Shown here: in pieces, positions 11,836-29,659 of the stretch
How positions within the stretch are numbered: position 1 is the first letter of the stretch
How the letters are laid out: every line of letters begins with the position of its first letter
Origin: a bacterium
GTDB lineage: Bacteria; Synergistota; GBS-1
Direction: 5' to 3'
Length of the DNA: 64,000 nt
NCBI GenBank assembly: GCA_030153785.1
Contig: JASKLF010000005.1
Span: 64,001 to 128,000, forward strand
The notes under the pieces: model-generated
Databases searched by the model: none
Told to the model about the DNA's origin: nothing
What the model saw: only the letters and a program-made list of their open reading frames with translations
Made by a program: the position numbers and the translations under genes

Positions 11836-12589
11836 TATGGGGGAAAGCTTTGGAAGATATAAGCTTGGATACGATGAAGAGCTCTTAAAATACGTCTCTT
11901 CTGCAAACATAGCCTGTGGGCTTCATGCGGGTGACCCGTTGGTCATGGAACGCACGGTAAAGGAGGCCTTATCTCGAGGAGTGGGAGTTGGGGCACATCC
12001 GGGTTATCCTGACCTTCAGGGCTTTGGCAGAAGGTCCATATCTATGTCTCCTGAGGAAGTGGAGGCCTTCGTCCTGTATCAGATAGGGGCGCTTTATGCC
12101 TTTGTCAAGGCCAATGGTGGCACCTTAAGGCATGTTAAGCCTCATGGACAGCTTTATAATGACGCAAATAACGCGGCGTCCCGTGGAGACGAAAGCATTG
12201 CGAGGGCCATCGGTAATGCGGTTAAAAGATTTGACCCATCTTTAATCTTGGTTGGCCTTGCGGGAAGCAAAATGGTGGAGGTCTGGAGAAGGATGGGGCT
12301 CAAGGTGGCTGAGGAGGTCTTCGCAGATAGAGCTTATAATCCTGATGGGACCCTCGTTTCCCGTTCGAAGCCTGGCGCCGTGATAAAGGACCCCGATGAG
12401 GTTGTTAACAGGGTGATTCGTATGGTCAAAGAGAGGGAGGTAGTTGCCATAGATGGAACGGTAATAAGAAACTTGAGCTTCGATACCATATGTGTTCACG
12501 GGGATACTCCTACAGCTGTTGAGCTGGTTAAGAGGATAAGAGAGGCGCTTGATAGGGAAGGAATAGAAGTGAAGCCCATGGAAGTTTGA
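11813..12589 (+). CDS. pxpA: 5-oxoprolinase subunit A (LamB/YcsF family)
   Basis: IDLNSDMGES, SANIACGLHAGDP, GAHPGYPD, HVKPHG.LYN, FADRAY, TICVHGD. Confidence 0.93.
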   Translation: MRIDLNSDMGESFGRYKLGYDEELLKYVSSANIACGLHAGDPLVMERTVKEALSRGVGVGAHPGYPDLQGFGRRSISMSPEEVEAFVLYQIGALYAFVKANGGTLRHVKPHGQLYNDANNAASRGDESIARAIGNAVKRFDPSLILVGLAGSKMVEVWRRMGLKVAEEVFADRAYNPDGTLVSRSKPGAVIKDPDEVVNRVIRMVKEREVVAIDGTVIRNLSFDTICVHGDTPTAVELVKRIREALDREGIEVKPMEV

Positions 12590-15070: not shown

Positions 15071-15099
15071 TTGACATTGGAAGCTTTCTGTGATATTCT
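15071..15099 (+). promoter_or_regulatory. sigma70 promoter of the GntR/aminomutase operon
   Basis: TTGACA(15071-15076)-N17-TATTCT with an extended TG. Confidence 0.7.
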
Positions 15100-15116
15100 T
15101 TATTTATCGAACAATT

Positions 15117-15126
15117 TTGTATACAA
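15117..15126. promoter_or_regulatory. Candidate GntR/FadR-type operator
   Basis: Perfect palindrome TTGTATACAA between the promoter and the gntR start; fits the TnGT-ACnA type consensus. Confidence 0.6.
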
Positions 15127-15137
15127 GGTGGTGTGCC

Positions 15138-15785
15138 ATGAAAGATATAGCCGAGCTTATAAAGAGAGGTATCATAATGGGTAAGTTTTTACCGGGGCAA
15201 CGGCTTAACGAGGCTGACCTGGCTGTTGAGTTTGGGGTGAGTAGGACGCCTGTAAGAGAGGCTTTAAGGGAATTGGTAGCGTGTGGTCTTCTTGAATATG
15301 AGAAGCATAAGGGGATAAGGGTGAAGAGGTATACCCTATCTGAGATAAGATACATATACGAGGTATGGTCTGAGCTGGAGGCTATAGCGGCGAGGCTATC
15401 TGCCTCTCGGATAGACGAAGCTTCCCTCCGGAGGATGAAGGATGTTCTCGATAAACAGGAAAGGCTTGTAAGGCTTGGGGAGATAAACTGGGATTACATA
15501 GAGCTTAATGATGAGTTTCATCTCGTTATTGCCAGTTCCACGCAAAATCCCTATTTGCTCAAAATGCTTTCTAACATGAGGGAGCTTATGAGACTTTACA
15601 GGCTTGGAAGCCCTGGCTGCTTGGGCAGGCTTAAGGATTCTTTTGAGGAGCATAAGAGGATCTTCGAGGCAATTAAAAATCGAGACCCGGAAGGAGCTTA
15701 TGCCTCAGCCTTTACCCATGTAAGGAATGCTTTCGCATATCTTGAAAATCGGGGGGTAAGCGAGATTGGTGTCCGAGCCTTATGA
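15138..15785 (+). CDS. GntR-family transcriptional regulator (FCD domain)
   Basis: PGQRL.E..LA.EFGVSRTPVREAL; DEFHLVI...QNPYL; EH..I..AI..RD. Confidence 0.92.
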   Translation: MKDIAELIKRGIIMGKFLPGQRLNEADLAVEFGVSRTPVREALRELVACGLLEYEKHKGIRVKRYTLSEIRYIYEVWSELEAIAARLSASRIDEASLRRMKDVLDKQERLVRLGEINWDYIELNDEFHLVIASSTQNPYLLKMLSNMRELMRLYRLGSPGCLGRLKDSFEEHKRIFEAIKNRDPEGAYASAFTHVRNAFAYLENRGVSEIGVRAL

Positions 15786-16203
15786 GAGGTTAAATAGGAG
15801 TCCTTTTTATCTTAAAAGGAGTCCTAAGGGCAGGCTTGTTGCCGTTTTGGACCTGAAGGTCATGGATAGGGGTTTAAAGCTCATTTTGCCCCGCTCGAGG
15901 GCTGTTAAGGCCTCTGAAATCCATGAAATAATAGTCACGCAGGAGGATGCTTCACCAGGGCAAACCGTGAATAACGCCGTCTATGTGGGTTTTTGGGAGG
16001 TTTTACAGGGTGGGATTTTGGAGGTCGGGGATGAGCTATGGATTGATGGAAAAAGGGTTGGCGTTTTGCTTGGCTTTGATGAGACTCACTTCCCCAATCA
16101 TATAAATATGGTGTTTAGGGGAGAGCCTCTAACGGGCAGGGAGAGGGGGCTGCCCTTAGAGGCTGAGGTTGTCTTTAGGGGGGAGGAATGGAGCGATGAG
16201 TAA
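15766..16203 (+). CDS. Conserved hypothetical beta-rich protein (recalled as DUF6917-like)
   Basis: RAV...EIHEII.T, YVGFWEV..GGIL.VGD.L.I.G..VG.LLGFDETH.PNHINMV; translationally coupled on both sides. Confidence 0.6.
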   Translation: MVSEPYERLNRSPFYLKRSPKGRLVAVLDLKVMDRGLKLILPRSRAVKASEIHEIIVTQEDASPGQTVNNAVYVGFWEVLQGGILEVGDELWIDGKRVGVLLGFDETHFPNHINMVFRGEPLTGRERGLPLEAEVVFRGEEWSDE

Positions 16204-17653
16204 CAGGTTTAAGTTCAAACTTTACAAGCATCTTCAGCTGAGCCTCCCGAAGATATACGAGGAGGCAAGGAGGGTTGCGGATGAAATAGGGATACCTAAG
16301 GAGATAAGGGGGAAGTTTGGATTAACGGGTGCCATATCCAGCTGTCATGGGCTTTTAACTCGTAAGGTGGCCAAGGTTATGGATGATGCGGCAAGGGAGG
16401 TTGTTCCTAACAAGGTTTATGACGAGGAGTTGAGGGAGATAATAAAGAGCTATTATGGAGATGAATATGATGCCTTGGCCGTTAATACCTGTGAAGCTGC
16501 CTTATGGCTGTGTTTCGATGTTTTAGTGAGTCCTCCTTTTCAGGGTAGAGGATATAACTATAGGTCCCGTTATATAGCTCCTTATGAAAGACACCTTCAT
16601 CATCAGGGTGGATACGGTAGGCCATTTCCTCCTAAGTACAAGGATATTTTTGCCGATAGGGGATGCACGGCCGGGGAGCTTGGATTTTATGGCAAGAGAC
16701 TTGAGAATGTGGATGTGGTTTATGTGCCCCTCGTGGGGGCAAGGTATGAAGTTCATGGAATAAAGTATCATCCTGTTGTATTGTTAAGCGGAGTTGACCC
16801 TAAAAGCTCGATTGAGAGAATTAAAGTTATTGCGGAGAGACACTCTCCCTTCTTGAGCGGTTTTAGCTCTCTCGCTTACGATACTCCCGGTTATGGTTAT
16901 GGGGTCAAGGATAAAGATGGAACCCCCGTTCTACAAAAGGGTATCGCCTCTTTGGCTAAAGATTTCGATGTTCCTTACATACTTGATAATGCGTGGGGAG
17001 TTCCTTTTATCGGCGCTGATTTAAGAAAGATAGGTGGAGATGTCATACTCTATAGCATGGACAAGGCGAGTGGTTCTCCCACCGTTGGGTTAATCATAGG
17101 GCGAGAGGATATCATGGTTTCTTTAAGAAGGGCCTTAGGGGTTCATGGGGATAGATGGGGGACCACGGGTTCCTACGGTAAGGCTGCTTATGTTACCTTT
17201 GACCCCGGTAAAGAGGCCCTCGTGGGATTAACGGCAGCATTAAAAGAGTTGCTCGATAACTCTAATAGGTTCATAAAGATGGTTGACAGGTTGTATGAGA
17301 TAACCATAGAGGAGTTTGGAAATATTCATCCCAACCTTAGGAAGGAGTTTAAGTTCGCTAAAAGCTATAATTCCGGTGCAGTTGAAATAAATTATGATAG
17401 GACTTGGATTGATGGTATCGGCCTTCCCATATTCTCGATAGAGGATATGTATTCTGGAACCAATATACTTCAAAGCGGTCTATCTCAAATGGGCATCATT
17501 CCAACTATAGCATATGATGCTAATATTTTCATCTCTCCCGGGCTTGGAACCACCGATGAAAATGGAGATCTCATTGAGGATCGAATGAGAATTGCGATAA
17601 GGGGATTGGTAAAGCTCATGGAGATAGTTGCAAAATACGCTGAATTGATATAA
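16196..17653 (+). CDS. PLP-dependent fold-type I enzyme, distantly SelA/DgaE-like, function unknown
   Basis: VNTCEAAL, ILDNAWG (pyridine-N Asp), YSMDKASGSPTVGLIIG (Schiff-base Lys at 17063, compare SelA SGDKLLGGP); SD GGAGG. Confidence 0.75.
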   Translation: MSNRFKFKLYKHLQLSLPKIYEEARRVADEIGIPKEIRGKFGLTGAISSCHGLLTRKVAKVMDDAAREVVPNKVYDEELREIIKSYYGDEYDALAVNTCEAALWLCFDVLVSPPFQGRGYNYRSRYIAPYERHLHHQGGYGRPFPPKYKDIFADRGCTAGELGFYGKRLENVDVVYVPLVGARYEVHGIKYHPVVLLSGVDPKSSIERIKVIAERHSPFLSGFSSLAYDTPGYGYGVKDKDGTPVLQKGIASLAKDFDVPYILDNAWGVPFIGADLRKIGGDVILYSMDKASGSPTVGLIIGREDIMVSLRRALGVHGDRWGTTGSYGKAAYVTFDPGKEALVGLTAALKELLDNSNRFIKMVDRLYEITIEEFGNIHPNLRKEFKFAKSYNSGAVEINYDRTWIDGIGLPIFSIEDMYSGTNILQSGLSQMGIIPTIAYDANIFISPGLGTTDENGDLIEDRMRIAIRGLVKLMEIVAKYAELI

Positions 17654-17690
17654 GCTTAAAGGTAACATTTCGATGGGGAGGTGCAGATAC

Positions 17691-18704
17691 ATGTTAAGGG
17701 GAAGGTTTTTGTGTATCATGGTGTTGCTTCTTTCCCTGTGTGTTGGGAGTATGGCCTTAGCTTCTGAGCTTAAGCCAGTAACTTTAACATGGGTAGCTGG
17801 TGGAGTTGGAGGAGGTTGGTATACTCAAGCGGGTGCTCTGGCTTCCTTGATTAATCAGAAAGAGCCTAAGATAACCATCAAGGTTGTTCCCGGTGGAGGA
17901 GTAGTTAACCCGATGCGCGTTTCCTCAGGCGAGGCTGACCTTGGGTGGGGTATAACCTTTGTCGATAAGATGGCTTATAAGGGACTTCAGCCTCTTTACA
18001 AAAAAGCGTTCCCGAATGTTAGAGCCATAGGTGGCTATTTTGGATATTATCATATTCATTTTATCGCCGCTGCCGAAACGGGAATTAAAACCGTTAAAGA
18101 GCTTGCTGATATGGTTAAGGCGGGTAAGCCCATAAGAATAGCTATACCCATGAAGGGGACATCTGATTTGCCTCTTGCTGAGAGGATTCTTGCTTTCTAC
18201 GGGATTAGCCTGGAGGACATTAAGAAGGCCGGTGGAGAGTATTTCCATGCGGTCTATGCCGATATGGTAAGCAACTATAAGGACCGCCATGTAGATTTCG
18301 TTATAACGCATCTTTCTTTACCTGCTGCGGCTGTAACGGAGATGTTTGTTTCCCGTGACTCCGTTCTTTTGGCCGTTTCGGATGAGTGCATAGACACGAT
18401 AAGCAAGGAGCTTGGAACCGTTCCTCGTGAGACAGGATTGTGTGTAATTCCGGCTGGAACTTATAAGGGGCAGAATGAGGATGTTCCTGCGGTTGCCACC
18501 GCTGGCGAGCTTTTGGTTAACGCCAACGTGCCTGAAGATGTGGTTTATACCATCACCAAGATACTGTGCGAGAATATTGAGGAAGTCTATGCTGCTCATC
18601 CAGCGAATAAGACTTTCGACCCCAAAACGGGGTGGAAGAACATAGCGGTTCCTCTTCACCCGGGTGCCGAGAAGTATTACAAGGAAAAGGGATACATGAA
18701 GTAG
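17691..18704 (+). CDS. TAXI-family TRAP substrate-binding protein
   Basis: Signal peptide; AGGVGGGWY, GGGVVN, PAGTYKGQ..DVP, VPLHPGAEKYYKE. Confidence 0.92.
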   Translation: MLRGRFLCIMVLLLSLCVGSMALASELKPVTLTWVAGGVGGGWYTQAGALASLINQKEPKITIKVVPGGGVVNPMRVSSGEADLGWGITFVDKMAYKGLQPLYKKAFPNVRAIGGYFGYYHIHFIAAAETGIKTVKELADMVKAGKPIRIAIPMKGTSDLPLAERILAFYGISLEDIKKAGGEYFHAVYADMVSNYKDRHVDFVITHLSLPAAAVTEMFVSRDSVLLAVSDECIDTISKELGTVPRETGLCVIPAGTYKGQNEDVPAVATAGELLVNANVPEDVVYTITKILCENIEEVYAAHPANKTFDPKTGWKNIAVPLHPGAEKYYKEKGYMK

Positions 18705-18720
18705 GGAGCTGAAGATACTC

Positions 18721-20619
18721 GTGCGGGTTCTTTCAGGTTGGCAAAGATATTTAGTGGGCGTGTGGCTTACCGCCACCGCCCTTTTTCATCTTTATACCGC
18801 TACCACGGGAGTTTTACAGCCGAGATATCAACGGGGAATTCATCTCCTTTTACTTTTGCCATTGGCTTTTTTGCTTTATCCAGCGACAAAGAAGTCTCCA
18901 CGCGATAGGTTTACCCTTTTAGACTCCCTTTTTGCGTTTCTTTCCCTTTTCCCTCCTCTTTACTTAATAGTTTTTAACGACGCATTGAACTTGAGATACG
19001 AATTTGTTGACCCTGTAACGCCCTTAGAGCTTACATTGGGTTTAATGAATATAGTTTTGCTTTTGGAAGCCATAAGGCGCGCTGTGGTTCCCGCTATGGC
19101 CTTGCTTCTATCGGTTCTTATGGGATACCTTTTCATTGCTCCTTATCTTCCGGGTGTTTTTTACGCTAAGCCATTGCCTTTGGGAAGGTTTGTAGAAATG
19201 TTTTATCTTATAACCGATAGCGGAATATATGGAGCGATAACGGGGATATCAGCTACAGTAGTGGCTCTTTTCGTTATCTTGGGTGCCTTTCTGGAAACCA
19301 CCAAGGTTGGAGATTATCTCACGAATATAGCTGCCAGGATAGCGGGAAGAGGACCAGGAGGTCCGGCGAAGATTGCCGTTTTGGCGAGCGGGCTCTTTGG
19401 TTCCATAAGCGGGGTGGCGGCAAGTAATGTATATGCCACAGGAAGCTTTACCATACCTATGATGAAAAGGTTGGGGTATAAACCGGAGTTTGCGGGAGCT
19501 GTTGAGGCGGTGGCTTCCACAGGTGGGATATTTATGCCTCCTGTGATGGGAGCTGCTGCCTTTGTTATGTCGGAGCTTACCAATATACCCTATATAAAGA
19601 TATGCGCCGCCGCTTTACTGGGAGCGATATTCTACTATTTGGCTCTGGGCCTTACCGTTCACTATGTGGCTCTCAGAGATAACCTTAAAGGGATGTCCAA
19701 GGAGGAGCTTCCCAAGTGGCGAGAGCTCGCTCGCGATTCCTACCTTCTTGCACCGGCATTTGGGTTGGTTTATTTTCTGATCAAGGGGTATTCTCCCTTT
19801 ATGGCAGCCTACTACTCGATATGGATTTCCATATTAATAAGCTTCTTTAAAAGGGAAACTTTCATGACCCCTAAGAGACTTCTCTTTTCCTTGGAGCGTG
19901 GGGCTTCAAATATGATAATAGTTGCTTTGGCCTGTGCGGGCGCTGGCATGGTAGTAAGTATTCTGACCCATACCGGTTTGGGTTTGGGACTGGCTTCAAT
20001 CATAACTACCCTTTCGAAGGGGCACCTTCTTTTGGCTCTTATATTGGTTATGATAGTTTGCCTGATTCTCGGCATGGGACTTCCAACCACACCTGCGTAT
20101 GTTATAGCGGTAACCATAGCTGGGCCTGCTTTGCTTAAGATGGGTGTAGACCCTTTAAAGGCTCATATGTTTTCCCTTTACTTCGCTAAGCTTTCCGAAG
20201 TTACACCGCCTGTTTGCGTAGCTTCCTACTGTGCAGCTTCAATTGCAGGAACGGATCCTATGAAGGTTGGCTTTGTCAGCTGGAGGCTTGCGCTTACGGG
20301 ATATCTCGTCGGATACATATTCATCTATAACGATGCTCTGCTTCTGAGGGGTAGCTTGGCAGAGATAGGATCGATCATCGTTTTTATGACGGTAATTTCT
20401 CTATCTCTGGCTATAGGTGTAGCGGGATATTTTAGAGGAAGATTAAGTTTGCTTGAAAGGTCGTTGTTCTTCGGTATTGTGATTGCTTTTACTCTCTTTT
20501 CAACCCTAAAGGGGTTTCCTCGTGAAACTGTGGCTTTGTTTGTGACCGTGTTTGCTTTGGGATATTTAGGTGTGAGTAAGTTTCTACTTAAAAAAGAAGA
20601 GGCTTCTAAGATAATTTAG
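18721..20619 (+). CDS. TRAP fused 4TM/12TM permease (TAXI type)
   Basis: GGPAKIAV..S..FGSISG, TGSFTIPMMK, EAVASTGG..MPPVMGAAAF, LGMGLPTTPAY, VTPPV. Confidence 0.93.
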   Translation: MRVLSGWQRYLVGVWLTATALFHLYTATTGVLQPRYQRGIHLLLLLPLAFLLYPATKKSPRDRFTLLDSLFAFLSLFPPLYLIVFNDALNLRYEFVDPVTPLELTLGLMNIVLLLEAIRRAVVPAMALLLSVLMGYLFIAPYLPGVFYAKPLPLGRFVEMFYLITDSGIYGAITGISATVVALFVILGAFLETTKVGDYLTNIAARIAGRGPGGPAKIAVLASGLFGSISGVAASNVYATGSFTIPMMKRLGYKPEFAGAVEAVASTGGIFMPPVMGAAAFVMSELTNIPYIKICAAALLGAIFYYLALGLTVHYVALRDNLKGMSKEELPKWRELARDSYLLAPAFGLVYFLIKGYSPFMAAYYSIWISILISFFKRETFMTPKRLLFSLERGASNMIIVALACAGAGMVVSILTHTGLGLGLASIITTLSKGHLLLALILVMIVCLILGMGLPTTPAYVIAVTIAGPALLKMGVDPLKAHMFSLYFAKLSEVTPPVCVASYCAASIAGTDPMKVGFVSWRLALTGYLVGYIFIYNDALLLRGSLAEIGSIIVFMTVISLSLAIGVAGYFRGRLSLLERSLFFGIVIAFTLFSTLKGFPRETVALFVTVFALGYLGVSKFLLKKEEASKII

Positions 20620-20650: not shown

Positions 20651-20890
20651 ATGGAGAGGATGTTTGAGGGAAGGATTTTAGATGCCCTTGATATTGAAGC
20701 GGTGTTTGTTGCCGAGGATGAGGAGGAGGCAAAAAGATTAGGGATTGACTTGGTTAGATCCTTTGGTCTTAAGGATGGGGATGTGGTTTTTTTAGAGAAG
20801 ATTGGGAAATTTGTTCGCGTCAGGCTTCGTGCCTATGTCTATAGACCGGGGGATAGATATTATTGGCTTTGTGGAGATGAGGCTAAATGA
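20651..20890 (+). CDS. 79-aa protein resembling the aminomutase (KamE/OraE) dimerisation domain
   Basis: LDIEAVF....EEEAKRLGIDLVRSFGLKDGDVVFLEKIG.FVRV parallels the recalled VQLSFTLP..ERAKEAA..LAKKMGL..PEVV.ME.LG; ATGA overlap with the next gene. Confidence 0.55.
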   Translation: MERMFEGRILDALDIEAVFVAEDEEEAKRLGIDLVRSFGLKDGDVVFLEKIGKFVRVRLRAYVYRPGDRYYWLCGDEAK

Positions 20891-22665
20891 AGATATTGAT
20901 GGTGCCTTTGGACCCCGTTCATGATGTTGCTTTAAAGATGCTGAAAAGGGAATTAATTGGCCGAGGATACGAGATAGTCCTTCTTCCTCCAGATATGAAG
21001 CTTGAAGAGGTAGTAGAGATATGTAAGCATGAGAGGCCTTCCTTCATAATGGTAAGTAGAACGGTAGGGTATGGAGCAAGTGAAATATTAGGCAGGTTTA
21101 TAGATCTTCTTGATGCCTCTGGAGTAAGGAAGTTTGCCCGGGTTATTGTGGGAGGAAAGGCTGTAACTAAGGAACTCGCTGCCGAACTTGGGTATGATGC
21201 GGGGTTTGGCGAAGGGACGAAGTGGGAAGATGTGGTTGCCTATATAGAGGGTAGGCCTGTTAAAAGAGGGGATGCCTTTTTTAAAAGAGAGAAGAGAGAT
21301 ATTACCAAGGGGTATAGTTACAGGATAGTTGATGAGGCTTTTTTAGACCCTTTAGATGAGATAGTAAGTCAGGTTTTAGAATGGGTTTCCGATAAAAGCT
21401 CTCCTGCGATAGAAAGGGCGAAGATAAGGGAAAGGATTCTTGCCGGTGAAGACCTTCTCGGGGAGTATTTGAAGCTTTGCGATGATTTAGTGAAGGGCTT
21501 TTATCTTAGGGGTGAAGTCCCTAAGAGGGTTAAGGTTTTAGCTGATGAGGAAGTGGATAGATTTAAGCGTTTTATAGGTGATACCCTCTTTCCTGAAGAG
21601 CCTTCCCCATTTTCGGATGGAAATCCTCTTATCTTCATCCAATATGGGACAGGCTGTCCCTTCATGGATGGGCTTCACATAAAGATATGTGAAGCGTGGG
21701 GAGCTAACGGCTTTCTTCACTTCGATCCCTCTTGGGGGGCAAGGCTTGAAGGCCTTCTTAGCGGGATACTCTCTCACGAGGAAGACGGCACGATATTGAC
21801 TCTTGAAAATTTAAAGCTTATCAAATCCCTCTTAAGCGAGTCAAGCCTTTGGAGCGTTAGAGCCCATAGGGGGTTGAATACTCCTGAAACGGTTGTCCTT
21901 GCATATGCTGCTGGTGCGGATTTGACGAAGATAAACATGGTTTATGGTTCCTTAAATGGGGGGACCGATCCTGAAAGGCTTGTAGTTGATGGGGTCTATG
22001 CGATAAAGCTTGCGTCGAAATTTAGCTTACCCTTTGATATCCCTACCAATGAGGAGTTGGGTGGCATTCCCGCTTATAAGGCCTTCGCTGGAATGCTTAT
22101 AGTAGCTCATTTGGGAGTTAAGCTCGGTGCCAAGCCCATATTAAAGCCCTTGTTCTGTTTTTCTCCCGATGTGATGATTAATGGCTATATGGATGATAAC
22201 TATGTGGATTATAATGTGGCAAAGGTTCTCGCCTTAAGGGAGATAATGGATGCCCCCATTTGGGCTGGTGAACCGATAGGCTTTATGACCCATAGCGAGG
22301 AAAGGGTTCAATCAGCGCTCACAACGGCGCTTCATGCGGGTTTGGCCAAGTCTCTTAGTCTTGATGCTGTTACCATAGCGTCGACCGATGAGGCTTATGC
22401 AAGGGGGGCGATAACCTCTGCTTCGAGGGTTGATTCTCTAAGGGGAGTCAAGGAAGCCTTCAGATTTCTTGGAAGAGCTTTAATCGAGCCTACATCTAAG
22501 GCGAAGAGCTTCAAGGAACTTATCAAAGAGGGAGTGTTGAGAACCTTAGATAGGGTCGCAAAAAGGGGAGATTTTGTGGCTTCCCTTTATGAGGGCTTAT
22601 TAGGGACGAGGGAAGAGGGAGCTACCCCTGGAAGGGCTGGGAGGGGAACGATTTTAAGATGCTAA
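20887..22665 (+). CDS. Cobalamin-dependent aminomutase-family protein: N-terminal B12-binding domain plus C-terminal KamD/OraE-like TIM barrel
   Basis: DPVHDVA (His ligand), MVSRT, IVGGK, AELGYDAGFGEG (KamE-like); barrel motifs QYGTG..MD..WGANG, GTILTLENLK, RGLNTPE, VYGSL...DPERLVVD. Confidence 0.8.
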   Translation: MKILMVPLDPVHDVALKMLKRELIGRGYEIVLLPPDMKLEEVVEICKHERPSFIMVSRTVGYGASEILGRFIDLLDASGVRKFARVIVGGKAVTKELAAELGYDAGFGEGTKWEDVVAYIEGRPVKRGDAFFKREKRDITKGYSYRIVDEAFLDPLDEIVSQVLEWVSDKSSPAIERAKIRERILAGEDLLGEYLKLCDDLVKGFYLRGEVPKRVKVLADEEVDRFKRFIGDTLFPEEPSPFSDGNPLIFIQYGTGCPFMDGLHIKICEAWGANGFLHFDPSWGARLEGLLSGILSHEEDGTILTLENLKLIKSLLSESSLWSVRAHRGLNTPETVVLAYAAGADLTKINMVYGSLNGGTDPERLVVDGVYAIKLASKFSLPFDIPTNEELGGIPAYKAFAGMLIVAHLGVKLGAKPILKPLFCFSPDVMINGYMDDNYVDYNVAKVLALREIMDAPIWAGEPIGFMTHSEERVQSALTTALHAGLAKSLSLDAVTIASTDEAYARGAITSASRVDSLRGVKEAFRFLGRALIEPTSKAKSFKELIKEGVLRTLDRVAKRGDFVASLYEGLLGTREEGATPGRAGRGTILRC

Positions 22666-23567
22666 GCTTGGGGGTATTCGGAACTGCGAAGAATACGGGA
22701 AAGACCACGGTTTTCAATACGGCTTTGAGATGCCTTTGGGGGTTCGGGCGTGTGGCGATAACCAGTATAGGCTTCGATGGCGAAGATTTGGACCACATAA
22801 CGGGGCTTCCCAAGCCCAAGGTAGTGGTTGACGAAGGTATTTGGATAGTAACAAGTAAAGGGGTAACATGGAGAGCCACCGCGAGGCTTGAGTTAGTTAG
22901 GGGTCTCGACGTTGATACTCCCTTTGGCTCTTTGGAAATATATAAGGCTAAGTCGCCTGGTAGAGTTCCACTCGTGGGGCCTAACCGGGCTGATGACTTG
23001 CTTAAAGTGAAGGAAATTCTTGCAGGTTACGGGGTTGAGCTCTTTCTGGTTGACGGGGCTATCAATCGCATGATTCCCTTTCAATACGTGGATCTTGTTA
23101 TCCTCGCAACGGGAGCGTCTCGAAGCACCAACATTGAAGAGCTACTTTTGGAAACGGAAGCCATTGTTAAAGCTCTTTTCCTACCGAAGGGAGAAATCGG
23201 CAAGCTTGAGCTCCTTGAGGGACCTATAAGCTTTGAAGTTTTGAAAAGCTATGAGGGTAGGGGGATTTTGGTAGAATCACCTTTCCACGTGCTTTTACTC
23301 ATTGATTACAGGAATTTGCTTGACCTGCTAAGGAAGGTAGAGGTCTTCGTCTTAAGGAAACCTGAGCTTTTGTGTATTACTCTGAACCCCACTTACCCTG
23401 AAAGGAGGATAGAGGGCTTTAGGCTTTCCATGATAGATTTCTCTTCCCTTAAAAGCTTTCTCTCCAAGAAGCTCGGCGTTCCCTGTATAGATGTTTTGAG
23501 GGAAGAGGATGAGCTCTGTGAACTTTTAAATGCGAGGGTGAGAAGAGGATGGGCGTTTACGACTTGA
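22659..23567 (+). CDS. KamB-like aminomutase reactivase subunit (P-loop protein)
   Basis: LGVFGTAKNTGKTT, ITSIGFDGE..D..TGLPKP, LVDGAINR, VILATGAS, NPTYP. Confidence 0.7.
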   Translation: MLSLGVFGTAKNTGKTTVFNTALRCLWGFGRVAITSIGFDGEDLDHITGLPKPKVVVDEGIWIVTSKGVTWRATARLELVRGLDVDTPFGSLEIYKAKSPGRVPLVGPNRADDLLKVKEILAGYGVELFLVDGAINRMIPFQYVDLVILATGASRSTNIEELLLETEAIVKALFLPKGEIGKLELLEGPISFEVLKSYEGRGILVESPFHVLLLIDYRNLLDLLRKVEVFVLRKPELLCITLNPTYPERRIEGFRLSMIDFSSLKSFLSKKLGVPCIDVLREEDELCELLNARVRRGWAFTT

Positions 23568-24697
23568 TTATCATAGGAGGAGGAATTATAGGGTGTTCTA
23601 TAGCTTATCACGTCTCCCTTTTTAAAAAGTGGAGAATCTTGATTATCGAAAAGAATGGCATAGCTGGAGGGGCTTCTGGCTCTTGCGATGGAATTTTGTC
23701 TATTCTCTCGAAAAAGGGCGGTATACATCTTGAACTTGCCTTGGAGAGCCTTTCCATGATTAAAAGCTTGTCGAAAGAGCTTCCTATCGATATCGAGTTT
23801 CAGGAAACTCCGGGGATGGTAGTAATAGAAGATGAGGGTTATCTTCCCTTTATGGAGAGATTCGTGAATGAACAGAGGAAAAACACCGACCTTAAGATAG
23901 ATTTCTTAAATCCTAAGGAAGCTTTGCGTTTTGAGCCTCTATTGTCCACGAGAATTGCGGGGGTTTTAAGGTCTCCTCAGAATGGTCAGGTTAATCCGAT
24001 ATATCTTACTTATGCCTTCTTTGAGGGTGCCCGCTTAAGGGGGGTAGAATTGAGAAGGGGGGAAGAGGTTCTCGCTGTTGAAAGGAAGGGCTTCGGCGGT
24101 TTTAGGGTTTTAACTTCTCACGGTAGTTATGAGTCTGAAAGGGTAGTCCTTTCTGCTGGTTCTTGGTCTCCGCTTATATCCTCTTCTATAGGTATAGAGC
24201 TTCCTATAAAGCCGAGGAGAGGACAGCTCCTTGTTACCGAACCTATTGCAAGAGCCATAAATCACACCGTGCTTTCGAGCAGATATATAGTGGCCAAATA
24301 TGGGGTTGATACGGGTGGTAAGGAGGGGTTGGCCTTAGAGCAAACCCATCACGGTGCCTTTTTAATAGGGGCAACAAGAGAGTTTGTGGGCTACGATAAA
24401 AGCGTAACTTCCTCCGCTTTCGAAAGGCTTTCCAAAAATGCTGTAGAGGCCTTCCCCTTTTTGCGTGGCTTGAGGGTTATAAGGGCTTTTGCGGGATTAA
24501 GACCCTGGACGCCTGATGGCTTACCGATAATAGATAACATAGATGGTCTCTTTTTGGCTTGTGGGCACGAGGGAGATGGGATATGCCTTTCTGCCGTAAC
24601 GGGTAAGCTTTTAAGCGAGCTTATAGTTTATGGTAAGGCTTCATTTGATGTATCTCCCTTTTCCTTAAGCAGATTTAATACCTCTTCAGCTTTGTAG
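23549..24697 (+). CDS. FAD-dependent oxidoreductase, D-amino-acid/glycine oxidase (DAO) family
   Basis: IIGGGIIG.SIAY, GGASG, SAGSWS, PRRGQ, AGLRPWTPDGLPII, CGHEGDG. Confidence 0.9.
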   Translation: MGVYDLIIIGGGIIGCSIAYHVSLFKKWRILIIEKNGIAGGASGSCDGILSILSKKGGIHLELALESLSMIKSLSKELPIDIEFQETPGMVVIEDEGYLPFMERFVNEQRKNTDLKIDFLNPKEALRFEPLLSTRIAGVLRSPQNGQVNPIYLTYAFFEGARLRGVELRRGEEVLAVERKGFGGFRVLTSHGSYESERVVLSAGSWSPLISSSIGIELPIKPRRGQLLVTEPIARAINHTVLSSRYIVAKYGVDTGGKEGLALEQTHHGAFLIGATREFVGYDKSVTSSAFERLSKNAVEAFPFLRGLRVIRAFAGLRPWTPDGLPIIDNIDGLFLACGHEGDGICLSAVTGKLLSELIVYGKASFDVSPFSLSRFNTSSAL

Positions 24698-25512
24698 GAG
24701 CTTCTTACCAGAGGGGCGCAGAAGGCCAGTTTGAAGCCAAGGGAGTAGGCGATCTCTTCATATTCTTTAAATTCCTCGGGAGTTATGAAACGCTCGACAG
24801 GTAGATTTTCTTTAGTAGGCTGAAGATATTGACCAATGGTTATGATATCACAGTTCGCCTCTCTTAAATCTTCCATAACTTCTATAACTTCCTCCTTATT
24901 CTCGCCGAGACCTACCATTATCCCTGATTTAGTTATTATGCTTGGGTTTAAATCCTTAACCTTCCTCAAGAGGTTAAGGGATCTTTCGTAGTTGGCCATC
25001 GGCCTGACACGAGGGTATAGCCTTTTTATCGTTTCGAGGTTATGATTGATCACCGTGGGAAGCGCGTTGACCACCTTTGCGAGGGCTTCCTCGCTTCCCT
25101 TAAAGTCGGGTATCAGTACCTCTATTCCCTTTACGCTTTCTATCTTTTTTACCTCCCTTATCGTGCTTTCAAAGACGCTTGCTCCACCATCTTCAAGGTC
25201 GTCTCTCGTTACGGAGGTTATAACCACATATTTTAAGCGAAATTTTTTAACCGCCTCAGCCACTCTAAAGGGCTCTTCCTCATCGATGGGTAAGGGATTT
25301 CCCTTTGTTACCGCACAAAACCCGCAATTTCTCGTGCATATATCCCCCAGGATCATGAAGGTTGCCGTCCCTCTTGAGAAACACTCTCCCAAGTTTGGGC
25401 ATCTTGCTTCCTCACAAACCGTATGAAGTCCACATCCCCTTAGTATTTTCCTTGTGGATTCCGCTTTTCCTCCTTTAGGGAGGTTTGACCTTATCCAGGA
25501 TGGCTTTCTCAT
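24628..25512 (-). CDS. lipA: Lipoyl synthase
   Basis: LHTVCEEARCPNLGEC, CTRNCGFC, HNLET, KSGIMVGLGE, GQYLQP, PLVRSSY. Confidence 0.96.
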   Translation of the reverse strand: MRKPSWIRSNLPKGGKAESTRKILRGCGLHTVCEEARCPNLGECFSRGTATFMILGDICTRNCGFCAVTKGNPLPIDEEEPFRVAEAVKKFRLKYVVITSVTRDDLEDGGASVFESTIREVKKIESVKGIEVLIPDFKGSEEALAKVVNALPTVINHNLETIKRLYPRVRPMANYERSLNLLRKVKDLNPSIITKSGIMVGLGENKEEVIEVMEDLREANCDIITIGQYLQPTKENLPVERFITPEEFKEYEEIAYSLGFKLAFCAPLVRSSYKAEEVLNLLKEKGDTSNEALP

Positions 25513-25519
25513 ATCAACG

Positions 25520-25528
25520 ATTATAGCA
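25520..25528 (-). promoter_or_regulatory. Extended -10 (TGcTATAAT) 7 nt before the lipA ATG
   Basis: Minus strand reads TGCTATAAT-CGTTGAT-ATG with no SD. Confidence 0.6.
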
Positions 25529-25568
25529 AAAAAATTGGGGCTGGGAATTTTTCCCAGCCCCGTTTTTT
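25528..25568. terminator. Terminator after the minus-strand dctP (bidirectional shape)
   Basis: GGGGCTGGGAA-TTT-TTCCCAGCCCC flanked by A and T tracts. Confidence 0.85.
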
Positions 25569-25576
25569 CTTGTTTT

Positions 25577-26575
25577 TCACTTCGTTGCTAAGTCTATAAA
25601 TTGCTTTCCTATGTCTTCTCCCACCGTTTTCACCCATTTCTCCCACGTAGGTTTGCATATTTCTCTGAATTGCTTTACTACATCTTCTGGGGGTTCTATT
25701 ACCTCTATTCCTTTAGCTTTAATCTTGGGCCATACCTCTTGTTCGTGAACCATCTCGGCATATTTCAGGTGTAGATAATCGTACTTGTAGGCTGCGAGAG
25801 TGATGATGCGCTTGACGCTTTCGGGGAGCTTGTCCCACGTTTCTTTCTTCATATATATTCCTCTCCCATATGCGCTTAAGGGTATCTTTGTGCAATATTT
25901 AAGGACTTCATAAAGAGCCCTTCCTCCTATAGTTCCAGGATAAGCTACCAGTCCGTCGATGGTTCCCCTTTGTAAAGCTTCGTAAAGCTCACCTGAAGGC
26001 ATGAAGACGGGGGAAGCTCCTAATGCTTTAATGGCCTCAGCTTCCGCCTCTCCTCCCACCCTGATAATCATCCCTTTAAGATCTTCTGGGGTTCTGACGG
26101 GCTTCTTTGCGGTCCAGAGATATTGCGAAGGAATGGCTCCGAAAGCTAAGAATACGATACCGTGCTTTTCCATCATTACCTTTTGGATGAGATTAAATAG
26201 AGGCTGGCCTATCTTCAGCTTTTCGTTCATATCCCAATCGCTCTTGAATATGAATGGTAGAGAAGGACCACCCATTATAGGCCAACTTCCCGTGGTGTGA
26301 GATGTGGTATGAAAGATTATGTCCGCGGTTCCAGCTTCAAGTCCCGGCACAAGTTCTTTAACCTTAAGAAGTGTTCCAGAATGGTAGAAGTTCAGCTTTA
26401 TCTTGCCTTCTCCTGCCACGTTAACATCATCTATAAATGCTTCTTCGGGAGGAAGAAGGTCCTTGTATCCGGGGGTAACGTGAGAGGCAACGTTCATGGA
26501 TATAACTTTGGCTAAGGCGACGCTTGCAAATACTGATATCAGTAGAAATGCCATTAATATGTAACTTTTCTTCAC
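25577..26575 (-). CDS. dctP: TRAP substrate-binding protein DctP
   Basis: Signal peptide; KPVRTPEDLKGMIIRV, LGASPV.MP.GELYEALQRGTIDG. Confidence 0.9.
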   Translation of the reverse strand: MKKSYILMAFLLISVFASVALAKVISMNVASHVTPGYKDLLPPEEAFIDDVNVAGEGKIKLNFYHSGTLLKVKELVPGLEAGTADIIFHTTSHTTGSWPIMGGPSLPFIFKSDWDMNEKLKIGQPLFNLIQKVMMEKHGIVFLAFGAIPSQYLWTAKKPVRTPEDLKGMIIRVGGEAEAEAIKALGASPVFMPSGELYEALQRGTIDGLVAYPGTIGGRALYEVLKYCTKIPLSAYGRGIYMKKETWDKLPESVKRIITLAAYKYDYLHLKYAEMVHEQEVWPKIKAKGIEVIEPPEDVVKQFREICKPTWEKWVKTVGEDIGKQFIDLATK

Positions 26576-26591
26576 CCTCCTTCACCTCCTT

Positions 26592-27893
26592 TCATCTCAT
26601 TGTGCTTGGTAACCACAAGGCCAGAGATGGCCAGAATACAAACAAAAGAAGGCATAATATTTCTACTATTATGTATGGAGCCGTTCCCCTTATTATTTCA
26701 TTTATGCTCAGGTCTTCCGCGATGCTCTTTAAGGTGTAAAGGTTAAGTCCTACCGGAGGAGTTATCACCGCAATTTCTACGTTTAAGACCATAAGTATCC
26801 CAAACCATAGGGGGTCAAACCCTAAGGCCTTGACGGCGGGAAGCATAATAGGCGTGGTCACAATTATCAATGAAGCTCCATCTATTATACAGCCTAAGAG
26901 GATTAAGACCCCCATGAATATTAGAATCACTCCTATTCCCGGAAGTTCCACGCTCGTTGCCCATCTTGCTACTCTTTCGGGCACCCTGACCAAGTTCAAA
27001 AATTGACTGAAGGTAAAGGCGCAGGCTAAGATTATCAGCAAAGACGCGCTTATTCTTGCAGAGTTGGATAAAACGGTTAAGAGCTTTTTCCAGTTTAGCG
27101 TCCTGTAGATTAAGGTTATAAGCAAAGCTCCTGCAACTCCTATAGATGCTGCCTCCGTTGGCGTTGCTATCCCAGTGTATATGGAACCTAAAACGAATAT
27201 TATGAGTAAAAGGACCACCCATAGCCTCCTTAGCGAGGCAATTTTTTCGCTTAGACTTACGCTTTCAAATTCTCTGGGGGCAAGCTTGGGGTCTCTAATG
27301 ACCGTTAGAAGAACATATAAAGCCATTGCCGTGGCGAGGATTAAACCGGGGACTATTCCACCTATGAACAGCTTTGCTACCGATTCTCCCGATAGGGAAC
27401 CGTATAATATGAAGGATATGCTTGGGGGTATTAAGACCGCTAAGGCTCCCGGTGCGGCAACTGCTCCTGCGGCAAGCTTTTTATCGTATCCCCTTTTTAG
27501 CATTTCAGGTATGGCCATCGTTCCTATTGCAGCGACACCGGCTATGCTAACTCCGCACATGGCTCCAAAGAGTGCACAGGAGTATATCGTAGCTATGGCC
27601 AATCCTCCTGGAACCCTATTAAGCCACTTGCTAAAAGCGTTGTATATGTCCCTTCCTATTCCACTTACGAAGATAAGCTCGCCCATAAGTATATAAAGAG
27701 GTATTGCAACCAATATAAAGCTGAAAAGCTGGGATGTTATGGAAGCGGGTATTTGAAAGAGCCCCTTTGTTCCGCTTATAAGGTATATACCGAACGCGCC
27801 TGCAAGTCCTAAGGAAATGAAGATGGGAGTCCCCAGCGCCATGAATATCAGTAGCGTTCCTATGGCAAGGATTGTTACCGAGTCGAAACTCAT
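26592..27893 (-). CDS. dctM: TRAP large permease DctM
   Basis: AIPLYILMGE, LIPPSI, ATPTEAA, ITPPVGLNL. Confidence 0.92.
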   Translation of the reverse strand: MSFDSVTILAIGTLLIFMALGTPIFISLGLAGAFGIYLISGTKGLFQIPASITSQLFSFILVAIPLYILMGELIFVSGIGRDIYNAFSKWLNRVPGGLAIATIYSCALFGAMCGVSIAGVAAIGTMAIPEMLKRGYDKKLAAGAVAAPGALAVLIPPSISFILYGSLSGESVAKLFIGGIVPGLILATAMALYVLLTVIRDPKLAPREFESVSLSEKIASLRRLWVVLLLIIFVLGSIYTGIATPTEAASIGVAGALLITLIYRTLNWKKLLTVLSNSARISASLLIILACAFTFSQFLNLVRVPERVARWATSVELPGIGVILIFMGVLILLGCIIDGASLIIVTTPIMLPAVKALGFDPLWFGILMVLNVEIAVITPPVGLNLYTLKSIAEDLSINEIIRGTAPYIIVEILCLLLFVFWPSLALWLPSTMR

Positions 27894-28378
27894 GGATTTT
27901 CCCTCCTCGCTTCCCTAAGCTCATCAAGGAGTTTTACTATAAGCTGGATGCCCAGTGCTAACGCACCTAAGGGAAGGAAAATGTAAACCAAGAACAAAGG
28001 GGTTCTTAAAAGCGATGGCATTTTCATTCCTTTAGAATATACGAGCCAGGTTGCTTTTCCACCTTCCCATGCTAAGATTGCTGTAAATATTAAGGCTATA
28101 GTTCTATTTATGATGTTAACTATTCTTCTTTTTCCTTCGGATAGCCAGTCGATGATAAGACTGAACTTTATGTGTTTATCGAGACGTTCAACCTCTGCTA
28201 TGGCGAGAAAGGTTAACATAATTAGCATAAGCTCCGTGACCTCCGTTGCCCAGTAGGGAGGCCTTCTAAAGAGGTAGCGCATTATAACCGAATAAAAAAC
28301 CACCACTTGTATACCTGTGATTACGCCGATGGATAGCCAAAAGAGGAGTTTTGATATCATTTCGAGCTTTCTTCTCAT
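27890..28378 (-). CDS. dctQ: TRAP small permease DctQ
   Basis: VIMRYLF.RP..W..EV, HIKF, four TM segments. Confidence 0.88.
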   Translation of the reverse strand: MRRKLEMISKLLFWLSIGVITGIQVVVFYSVIMRYLFRRPPYWATEVTELMLIMLTFLAIAEVERLDKHIKFSLIIDWLSEGKRRIVNIINRTIALIFTAILAWEGGKATWLVYSKGMKMPSLLRTPLFLVYIFLPLGALALGIQLIVKLLDELREARRENP

Positions 28379-28427
28379 TCAGCTCACTCGCTTTCCTAAT
28401 GGGATTAAATGATAGACCCAATTACTA

Positions 28428-29102
28428 TTATATCATTTCATCTTCATTTAAAATTTCATAGGAGGGAAAAAGAAGCTTAAAAGACTCCAAATAGTGTTGC
28501 TTGACCTCACTTATCGGTGGGGCAAATCCCTTTAGGCTTTTTATCGAAACCATATTAATTCCTGTAAGACCGCAAGGGGTTATTAAAAGAAAGTGTCTTA
28601 AGATGGGGTCCACATTGAAGGCCGTTCCATGATAGCTTATCCACTTCTTGCCGCTTCTTTTGATTCCTATTCCAATGGATGCTATCTTTCTTCTTTCATC
28701 TATCCATACGCCGGGATAACCATCTCTATGAATGGCTTTTATATCATATTTTTTAAGAACCATGATTATCGCCTCTTCGAGCTTCCATACATATTCCTTT
28801 ACACTGCAATCTAAGGGGATTATAGGATATAATATGAGCTGGCCTGGGCCATGGTAGGTTACATCTCCGCCTCTGTCGGTAAAAACAACCTTTATTCCCT
28901 CTCTTTTTAAGACTTCCTCAGGTGCGAGGATGTGCTCTTTCTTCGCCCTTCTTCCAAGCGTGAAAACGGGCGTATGTTCTAAAAGGAGAAGGAAACCTAT
29001 ACCCTCTTTTTCCGATCTTTCTAAAAGCGTTTTCTGAAGCTTAAAGCATTCTTCGTAATCCTTTGGTTCCTTAAAATCTATCAGGTAAATCTTTGCTTTC
29101 AT
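28428..29102 (-). CDS. lipB: Octanoyltransferase LipB
   Basis: LLEHTPVFTLG, DRGGDVTYHGPGQL, KIASIG, HGTAFNV, ITPCGL. Confidence 0.94.
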   Translation of the reverse strand: MKAKIYLIDFKEPKDYEECFKLQKTLLERSEKEGIGFLLLLEHTPVFTLGRRAKKEHILAPEEVLKREGIKVVFTDRGGDVTYHGPGQLILYPIIPLDCSVKEYVWKLEEAIIMVLKKYDIKAIHRDGYPGVWIDERRKIASIGIGIKRSGKKWISYHGTAFNVDPILRHFLLITPCGLTGINMVSIKSLKGFAPPISEVKQHYLESFKLLFPSYEILNEDEMI

Positions 29103-29659
29103 GGTCTAACCAGAAGGGGATTTAACGAATCTATCTTGGCTAAAGATACCACTTTGTAGTTTTTGAGCGTCTCTCTTCCCCTTTGAAAGGTTTTTTCTAT
29201 ACATATACCTATGCCTACAACCTTTCCCCTTGCTTCTTCAATCATTTCGCATAACGCTTTTATCGTCTCCCCCGTTGCCAGAAAGTCGTCAATGATTAAC
29301 ACCTTTTCTCCTTCCCTTATATAGTCTCCAGAAAGAGAGATGGTAATCTCGTTAAGCTTTGTTCTCGATGTTATCTTTCTTTCAAAAACTTTTCCGCATA
29401 AAGTAATGGGCTTTCTCTTCCTCGCAAAGATAAGGGGGATTCCTAACGATAAGGCAGTAAATAAAGCTGGGGAGATCCCTGAAGACTCAACCGTTAATAC
29501 TAAGGAAGGGTTTTCCTCCTTAAATATTTCGGCAAACCTTTCCCCGATTTTTTTAAGAAGGGCTGGGTCTACCCTGTGATTTAGAAAGCTGTCTACCTTA
29601 AGGATATTCTCTCCTATAACCCTGCCCTCTCTTTTGATTCTTTCGATGAGCTCTTCCAT
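29099..29659 (-). CDS. xpt: Xanthine phosphoribosyltransferase
   Basis: LKVDSFLNH, TVESSGI, FARKRKP, LIIDDFLATG, IEKTFQ.GR. Confidence 0.93.
   Translation of the reverse strand: MEELIERIKREGRVIGENILKVDSFLNHRVDPALLKKIGERFAEIFKEENPSLVLTVESSGISPALFTALSLGIPLIFARKRKPITLCGKVFERKITSRTKLNEITISLSGDYIREGEKVLIIDDFLATGETIKALCEMIEEARGKVVGIGICIEKTFQRGRETLKNYKVVSLAKIDSLNPLLVRP

Follow-up and report, generated by a model that had tools for sequence, protein, structure and literature searches.

The window analysed here is a stretch of 64,000 nucleotides from a bacterium of the Synergistota (lineage GBS-1; assembly GCA_030153785.1, contig JASKLF010000005.1, positions 64,001 to 128,000 of the forward strand). 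It carries a gene cluster (Table 1) that includes the large subunit of a probable B12-dependent mutase, the subject of this report. To our knowledge, only a handful of adenosylcobalamin (AdoCbl) isomerase families have been characterised. Lysine 5,6-aminomutase (5,6-LAM; KamD and KamE) and D-ornithine 4,5-aminomutase (OAM; OraS and OraE) are described in the text of PMC3958899 as uncommon in that they employ B12 together with pyridoxal 5'-phosphate (PLP). The large subunit is a conserved, unnamed relative of these B12-dependent lysine and ornithine aminomutases, and the canonical PLP site is almost certainly absent from it.

Table 1. Genes of the cluster and sites within the mutase large subunit (positions in the window)
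Feature	Position	Strand	Remarks
GntR/FCD regulator	15090..15785	+	First gene of cluster; Pfam FCD and GntR
DUF6917 protein	15766..16203	+	PF21891, E 7e-42
SelA/DgaE-like fold-type-I PLP enzyme	16196..17653	+	TIGR01437, E 1.6e-7; own PLP lysine in SMDK, Lys290
TAXI solute-binding protein and fused TRAP permease	17673..20619	+	TIGR02122 and TIGR02123 above cut-off; TAXI protein at 17673-18704
Small open reading frame (ORF), predicted second subunit	20651..20890	+	~79 residues; stop overlaps mutase start (ATGA)
B12-dependent mutase large subunit	20887..22665	+	ORF, 592 residues
Cobalt-ligand motif DPVHDVA	20911..20931	+	Residues 9-15; His12 at 20920-20922
Lys17 (His+5) to Leu23 (His+11)	20935..20955	+	PLP loop insert absent
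β2 loop D280-P-S-W283-G-A285	21724..21741	+	In place of PLP-phosphate loop R184-x-x-G187-Q188-S189
β3 end R325-A-H327-R328	21859..21870	+	R328 at or beside Ser238/Ser162 position
β4 K348, Y353, G358	21928..21960	+	G358 in place of phosphate-binding Arg268
β5 loop N388-E389-E390	22048..22056	+	N388 or E389 at Asn299 (PLP O3') place
β8 Glu502	22390..22392	+	Equivalent to OAM Glu338 and glutamate-mutase Glu330
KamB-like P-loop protein, predicted reactivase subunit	22659..23567	+	NF052386, E 7e-51, 173 bits, under the 210 cut-off
DAO-family FAD amino-acid dehydrogenase	23549..24697	+	PF01266, E 1.7e-67

In the large subunit a B12-binding Rossmann domain (residues ~1-125) precedes a clamp and a TIM barrel that resemble those of KamD (~148-592). 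Its sole Pfam match is PF02310 (B12-binding) at residues 10-112; neither PF09043 nor the glutamate mutase model PF06368 matched in the Pfam scan, and the best named match of the B12 domain, far under cut-off, is KamE. A structure model built with 118 homologues (pLDDT 88.4) has as its top fold match the α subunit of lysine 5,6-aminomutase (8t0v_A; Z 34.5, root-mean-square deviation 2.7, 381 residues aligned), and the ranking of folds runs from KamD (Z 33.8-34.5) through the ε subunit of glutamate mutase (28.4) to OAM (27.5). No PLP barrel of fold type III, the alanine-racemase type, is among the 50 fold matches listed. Barrels of that type carry the PLP lysine on the barrel, an Arg at the ring nitrogen and the phosphate site at β7-β8; the β8 loop here holds Glu502. 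In a hidden Markov model (HMM) search of 1.84 billion proteins, the barrel matched P0340 (E 1.3e-10), a natural KamD-KamE fusion of 815 residues in which the PLP motifs are intact.

Cofactor sites of the large subunit

A sequence-only reading of the window had pointed to a DPVHDVA motif with Leu, not the PLP-tethering Lys, at His+11, and to Arg328 (AHRG) and Tyr353 (MVYG, nt 21943-21945) lying 25 residues apart in the barrel, with Lys348 shortly before the Tyr. These features are present as described, the motif at residues 9-15 and the Leu at position 23, and the reference features that it cited agree with the text of PMC3958899, which gives His133/Lys144 for KamE, His618/Lys629 for OraE, Ser238/Tyr263 and Ser162.

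In the family alignment D9, P10, V11, H12 and D13 are conserved in 200/200 sequences. Counts out of 245, here and below, refer to distinct sequences longer than 540 residues, down to 46% identity. Position 15 (His+3) is Gly in 128 of these and Ala in 115, so Ala in place of the DxHxxG glycine does not mark the family. Position 23 (His+11) is Leu in 222, Phe in 20, Met in one and Ile in one, and never Lys; among control sequences of KamE, OraE and KamD taken from genomes, Lys stands at His+11 in 32/32 KamE and 42/42 OraE. The spacing from the His to the end of β2 is 20 residues in 192/200 family members (six gave no match and two were longer) and in 8/8 other B12 domains, against 29 in 32/32 KamE and 24 in 42/42 OraE. 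By these alignments, the PLP-lysine loop is gone rather than displaced. Lys17 and Lys20, which the sequence-only reading had named as residues that might yet occupy the canonical PLP-lysine place, do not, and both were ruled out as the PLP lysine: Lys17 is invariant and lies at His+5, where it aligns with an ordinary B12-domain position of OraE (Lys in 26 and Arg in 16 of 42), and Lys20 is Lys in only 80/245 sequences.

For the barrel, the family profile was slid ungapped, shift by shift, against KamD and OraE. The PLP contacts of 5,6-LAM given in the text of PMC3958899 are K144, S238, Y263, N299, R184, R268, S189, G187 and Q188, and the controls retain them (33/33 KamD, with G187 in 27/33; 42/42 OraE). 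At the phosphate loop the register is clear (KamD +14.5 against -12.3 for the next shift; OraE +19.3 against -8.8): Arg184 is replaced by Asp280, Gly187 by Trp283, Gln188 by Gly284 and Ser189 by Ala285, while on β4 Arg268 gives way to residue 358, which is Gly in 165 sequences and Ala in 80. D280 and W283 are each found in 245/245 and A285 in 243/245. Deletion of the phosphate loop was rejected as an alignment artefact; the loop is of equal length and its residues are substituted.

The end of β3 is less easily placed. R325, H327 and R328 are each invariant (245/245), and Arg328 falls on Ser238 in the profile and HMM alignments; when the strand is taken alone, the comparison with KamD leaves shift 0 tied with +2 and -3, and in that with OraE the top score goes to +2, so that the equation of Arg328 with Ser238 carries a two-residue ambiguity and is not proven. 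His327 as the residue at the Ser238 place was dropped, a one-residue shift scoring below shift 0 against KamD. No Ser occurs at positions 324-330 (V-R-A-H-R-G-L) in 200 sequences. The Ser-to-Arg replacement at the ring nitrogen put forward in the sequence-only reading stands in its absence of Ser and in the Arg of the full alignments, and loosens at the exact register. Such a change alone proves little, because 5,6-LAM can dispense with Ser238 (S238A is only 3.2-fold down in the text of PMC9105233).

On β4, K348 and Y353 are, like R328, conserved in 245/245 sequences of the homologue alignment. The register of Tyr353 is firm (shift 0 scores +11.5 and every other shift -20 or lower), and it corresponds to Tyr263 of 5,6-LAM, Tyr187 of OAM and Tyr177 of glutamate mutase; as PLP-free glutamate mutase has Tyr there too, the ring-stacking Tyr is not diagnostic of PLP. 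Lys348 aligns to OAM His182 and glutamate-mutase Glu171, both substrate-contact positions. On β5, N388 and E390 are each present in 244/245 sequences, and the place of Asn299 falls on E389 in the register favoured by KamD and on N388 in that favoured by OraE. The place of OAM's substrate-binding Arg297 on β7 is Trp459 (the best register against KamD; unsettled against OraE) and that of Glu81 is Gln252, and the substrate would therefore differ from that of OAM. As aligned, of the nine PLP contacts the Tyr is clearly kept, the Asn is ambiguous and the remainder are not clearly kept.

Glu502 is invariant (245/245) and aligns to OAM Glu338 and glutamate-mutase Glu330, which, according to the text of PMC4413051, contact the adenosyl ribose and aid Co-C homolysis. 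A profile alignment to glutamate mutase, itself a weak match (probability 74%, E 3.4e-6), pairs Arg325 with Arg149, Tyr353 with Tyr177, Asp280 with Asp96, Lys348 with Glu171 and Gly254 with Arg66; the β3 segment W-Q/T/C-V-R325 resembles L-Q-V-R149, its best register scoring +2.5, and β8 too is like that of glutamate mutase. In the text of PMC10947579, Arg66, Arg149 and Glu171 of glutamate mutase hold the migrating glycyl group, Glu171 contacting its amine, the α-nitrogen; within the arginine claw (R66, R100, R149) and E171, R149 alone has a clear equivalent here. By its fold, its His-on motif and its β8 Glu the large subunit is AdoCbl barrel mutase-like; it lies outside glutamate mutase, and outside the PLP aminomutases because the lysine loop and the Ser are lacking and the phosphate site is replaced.

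Family, gene cluster and constant partners

The family is a tight one. It accounts for 1049 matches among 8000 candidates scored; 1.84 billion representatives included one full-length member (at the 50% identity level) plus fragments, and no family intermediate between this one and KamD was present among the best 150 of 932 matches. Members come from Bacillota, Thermotogota, Atribacterota, Spirochaetota and other groups, and cultured carriers include Heliobacterium, Thermovorax, Fervidicola and Tepidanaerobacter. Nothing was found on the family among the open-licence papers listed, supplements excluded, and a subscription paper or a table may mention it; residue names sought in the available text of PMC12429584 were not found there. 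A tree was built with FastTree from 154/173 rows, loci without a mutase ORF of at least 540 residues and exact duplicates being left out.

The order of genes in Table 1, from the regulator to the DAO-family dehydrogenase, is mostly common to two relatives. The small ORF resembles the dimerisation domain of KamE and OraE (hhalign to the N-terminus of KamE: probability 93%, E 2.6e-7). Neighbours were labelled at 180 loci, which are redundant and frequently cut short: the small ORF is present in 174 of them, five of the six misses starting at a contig edge, and is naturally fused to the large subunit in none. The system consists of KamDE parts cut and joined in another arrangement, because a KamD-like barrel, a small ORF like the KamE dimerisation domain and a KamB-like gene occur together.

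A partner survey covered 301 genomes of one phylum, in which kin are not independent. The enzyme is present in 31 of them (matches at E 1e-39 or below, a single fragment and a single split gene among them; weaker matches span the B12 domain alone). The SelA-like PLP enzyme occurs in 31/31 mutase genomes and 36/301 overall, and DUF6917 in 31/31 and 34/301; two genomes with two mutase copies also hold two copies of each. Mutase, SelA-like PLP enzyme and DUF6917 therefore form a constant three-gene core. At five loci the PLP gene is not within 8 kb of the mutase but is located a few kb farther on the same contig, and in the operons it is often 5-12 kb from the mutase. Its PLP Asp and Lys, D264 and K290, are invariant in 50 sequences, and Foldseek leads with SelA and Cap15, the SelA type being β-eliminating; assignment of its reaction by fold failed, the VIA rows being tied at Z 21.6-23.1. 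DUF6917 has no solved relative, Atlas returns only the protein itself, and no papers on it were found in the open-licence literature. Extra or stand-alone SelA-like PLP genes with no adjacent mutase were observed at L198 (G329:C2), L231 (G128:C65), L226, L227 and L230, and genome G329 has a tandem repeat of DUF6917, PLP, FAD and transporter genes.

Among the 180 loci, neighbours were labelled KamB-like in 132, PLP enzyme in 111, GidA-like flavoprotein in 93, DUF6917 in 89, Rid in 68, DapF in 27, type II diaminopimelate (DAP) dehydrogenase in 15 and LdcA-like in six. The longer operons also have subunits of D-amino-acid dehydrogenase and a protein of the racemase family, together with genes that, judging by sequence, we take to be peptide or TRAP transporters and DapA/DapB-like; on the same footing, genes just downstream in some loci are presumably 2-oxoacid:ferredoxin oxidoreductase-like. 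The mutase probably acts in a catabolic operon, one of amino-acid breakdown. A scan for promoters and terminators found 16 against 15.2 expected, which is chance level.

Several further genes were seen around the cluster. The GidA/TrmFO-like flavoprotein of those 93 loci (L047:4894-6180 and relatives) has an invariant Cys cluster (C156, C163, C166, C170), is absent from the source genome, and has paralogues that pair with a PRK05802 protein. A 459-residue membrane protein without Pfam or NCBIfam match (L057:5509-6888 and relatives; 48/180 loci) is a probable transporter for the pathway. The source genome also has a separate gene set of DAO, sarcosine-oxidase-α-like and BFD genes (G000:C2:43203-46475; L225:5168-8485), ~59% identical to the SoxA-like protein that Thermotogota carry within the operon. 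Upstream of the cluster, in the source genome and two relatives, a LamB/YcsF (5-oxoprolinase A family) gene (window 11804-12589) lies behind a 1391-residue multi-GAF/HD-GYP-like protein (7660-11835). Converging on the cluster from the minus strand (24628-29659) are genes that, judging by sequence, resemble those of lipoyl synthase, TRAP (three genes), lipoate ligase B and xanthine phosphoribosyltransferase.

Relation to known mutases and proposed mechanism

With 5,6-LAM and its reactivase KamB/KamC (1xrs, 8t0v, 9q1a) the system shares the clamp and TIM barrel (14-15% identity at Z 33.8-34.5), the closest B12 domain, a dimerisation-domain homologue, a KamB-like neighbour, Tyr263 and the β8 Glu. 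It differs in that the Rossmann domain is fused before the barrel and the dimerisation domain is a separate gene, the PLP-lysine loop is nine residues shorter, the phosphate residues and Ser238 are replaced, the Lys370 position is Trp, and no KamC-like gene is among the conserved neighbours. OAM (OraS/OraE; 3kp1, 3kp0, 3kow) is alike in its barrel (Z 27.2-27.5), His-on motif, basic residue at His+5 and Glu338 equivalent, but here the domain order is reversed, the Lys629 loop is missing (four residues shorter), Arg109, Ser114, Arg192, Ser162, Arg297 and Glu81 are replaced, and His182 is Lys348. Glutamate mutase σ/ε (1cb7, 6h9e) has the same PLP-free loop length in its B12 domain, a similar barrel (Z 27.6-28.4) and, by profile alignment, equivalents of Arg149, Tyr177, Asp96 and Glu330; in contrast, Glu171 is Lys here, Arg66 is Gly, Arg100 is uncertain, the architecture is fused, and neither GlmL nor methylaspartase is among the conserved neighbours.

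Two other groups were encountered. A second B12-fusion family of 550-590 residues, with a Rossmann domain (motif CVHVAG) ahead of the barrel (L236:1411-3057 (-), L232:5662-7356, L233:5174-6865, L234:5842-7545 and L235:5356-7137), has a barrel that matches glutamate mutase (hhalign 98%, E 4.9e-14) and neither KamD nor the KamD-like family described here. The proteins of L237-L243 (for example L242:3201-4610 and L238:2765-4072) are divergent and glutamate-mutase-ε-like, lack the QPRAG, QVRHG and TPHE motifs, and are possibly inactive or repurposed subunits.

The sequence-only reading had left three options: PLP anchored differently, possibly on Lys348; PLP tuned by an Arg; or catalysis independent of PLP. 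Our results support the last, which we consider probable, and weaken the other two, because the phosphate site is replaced and Lys348 sits at a substrate-contact position. Within PLP-free catalysis, we hypothesize an imine-assisted carbon-skeleton shift by an AdoCbl radical mutase in which Lys348 would hold a 2-oxo acid as an imine; it is the best explanation we can offer, and a tentative one, held at somewhat less than even confidence. It was chosen because an invariant Lys sits where glutamate mutase contacts the substrate α-nitrogen, and because amino-acid dehydrogenases and Rid proteins, makers of 2-oxo acids, recur in the operons. Glu502 would aid Co-C homolysis of AdoCbl; Arg325 would bind the C1 carboxylate of the substrate, the role of Arg149 in glutamate mutase; Lys348, in the place of Glu171 and its α-nitrogen contact, would form a ketimine at C2; H would be abstracted from C4, and the imino-carboxylate group would migrate from C3 to C4 via a three-membered ring, the substrate's own C=N standing in for the PLP imine. 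Several points weigh against this hypothesis: residue positions rest on profile alignments, that to glutamate mutase being weak; the KamD and glutamate-mutase registers of β3 disagree on the pocket-facing residues; Tyr353 and possibly Asn388 are kept, and the nearest fold is KamD, not glutamate mutase; and the open-licence papers listed gave no precedent for a B12 mutase with an imine on a protein lysine.

If the enzyme instead worked like glutamate mutase, again free of PLP, an intact amino acid such as DAP would fragment into a glycyl radical and an alkene, which would recombine as a β-methyl amino acid; the oxidation step and the PLP partner would come later, and Lys348 would merely bind a carboxylate. 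Arg325, Tyr353, Asp280 and Glu502 at the places of Arg149, Tyr177, Asp96 and Glu330 fit such an enzyme, and several invariant basic and acidic pocket residues suit a diamino-dicarboxylate; since the glycyl-amine contact Glu171 is nevertheless Lys348 here and Arg66 is Gly254, we think it rather unlikely. A radical eliminase, in which NH3+ or OH would undergo a 1,2-shift and ammonia or water would then be lost, all in the absence of PLP, appears improbable: the lack of a PLP site, an acidic cluster (D280/D384/E389/E390) that could hold a migrating amine and a reactivase-like gene directly after the mutase are in its favour, but the His-on DxHxxG motif is the mutase and aminomutase mode, and the fold matches are mutases. 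Known B12 eliminases bind the cofactor base-on. Base-on binding is also what the text of PMC3958899 gives for ribonucleotide reductase. It is scarcely credible that the protein is a non-radical corrinoid methyltransferase fusion, given its KamD-like barrel, invariant Glu502, KamE as the best match of the B12 domain and KamB-like neighbour, even though corrinoid-protein models give the B12 domain a weak score.

The remaining alternatives retain PLP. Alanine racemase offers an analogy for an Arg at the PLP ring nitrogen. By that analogy, a PLP aminomutase might hold PLP on Lys348 with Arg328 contacting the ring nitrogen, and the invariance of K348, R328 and Y353, the correspondence of Y353 with Tyr263 and perhaps of N388 with Asn299, the nearest fold being a PLP aminomutase, and the dispensability of Ser238 in 5,6-LAM would all accord with it. 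We nonetheless give it little credence, as the phosphate site is replaced, with Asp at the Arg184 place and Trp at the Gly187 place, and K348 sits at the OAM substrate-carboxylate site; protonation of the ring nitrogen, moreover, stabilises the cyclic radical (text of PMC9105233), which an Arg there would be expected to oppose. It is still less probable that PLP, or a ready-made PLP-substrate aldimine, possibly from the SelA-like partner, is bound without a protein lysine. The constant presence of a PLP enzyme in the mutase genomes and the retained Tyr353 speak for it; yet a phosphate site should matter more without a covalent link and is gone, and the partner has a full PLP motif of its own and often lies at a distance in the operon.

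A diaminopimelate lead and the significance of the family

A substrate derived from DAP is a lead only, and on balance unlikely. In the pathway that would follow, meso-DAP would be oxidised at its D-centre (by a DAO-type or DAP dehydrogenase) to 2-amino-6-oxopimelate, which the mutase would rearrange to 2-amino-4-methyl-5-oxoadipate; the SelA-like PLP partner would split this by β-elimination of the 2-oxobutyrate enolate, giving 2-oxobutyrate and aminoacrylate, and then pyruvate and ammonia. The constant PLP partner would be explained, speculatively, because the shift moves the carbonyl so as to enable the PLP β-elimination. Direct C-C scission to glycine and an alkene is rejected on thermodynamic grounds. 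DapF, DAP dehydrogenase and LdcA-like neighbours occur in more than one tree branch, in support of the lead. The pathway as written is speculative and has a small chance of being right throughout; a B12 radical enzyme without B6, using a Lys348 imine and a partner PLP lyase for the C-C cut, and so converting DAP, an amino acid of the cell wall, to pyruvate and 2-oxobutyrate in anaerobes, is hardly more probable.

The observations that count against the lead come from the source genome and from the distribution of the neighbours. The source genome (completeness 95.7%) has neither DapF nor DAP dehydrogenase and no GidA-like flavoprotein, and no Rid match lies inside its cluster; a search of it also turned up neither KamD nor OraE nor glutamate mutase. 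DAP dehydrogenase shows no enrichment (7/31 mutase genomes against 77/270 others) and was on these counts rejected as an obligatory partner. Most loci with DapF or DAP dehydrogenase belong to one 46-row clade that includes the source protein, outside of which there are a separate DAP-dehydrogenase lineage and LdcA-like genes elsewhere in the tree, and in three Thermotogota genomes, out of five genomes tested, the cluster DapF is the sole DapF and may be biosynthetic. Lanthionine as substrate would fit the DapF, D-cysteine desulfhydrase-like and Rid neighbours, yet it requires no mutase and was not favoured.

New here are a register test made position by position, the alignment of Lys348 and Arg325 with Glu171 and Arg149 of glutamate mutase, and the core of three genes in 31/31 genomes. 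The family is open to direct testing, as there are cultured carriers, a defined core of three genes and, in PLP binding, a property that is simple to measure. An aminomutase scaffold without a PLP site would show how the scaffold operates without B6, and the family would point to a fermentation of amino acids by anaerobes that has so far gone undescribed.

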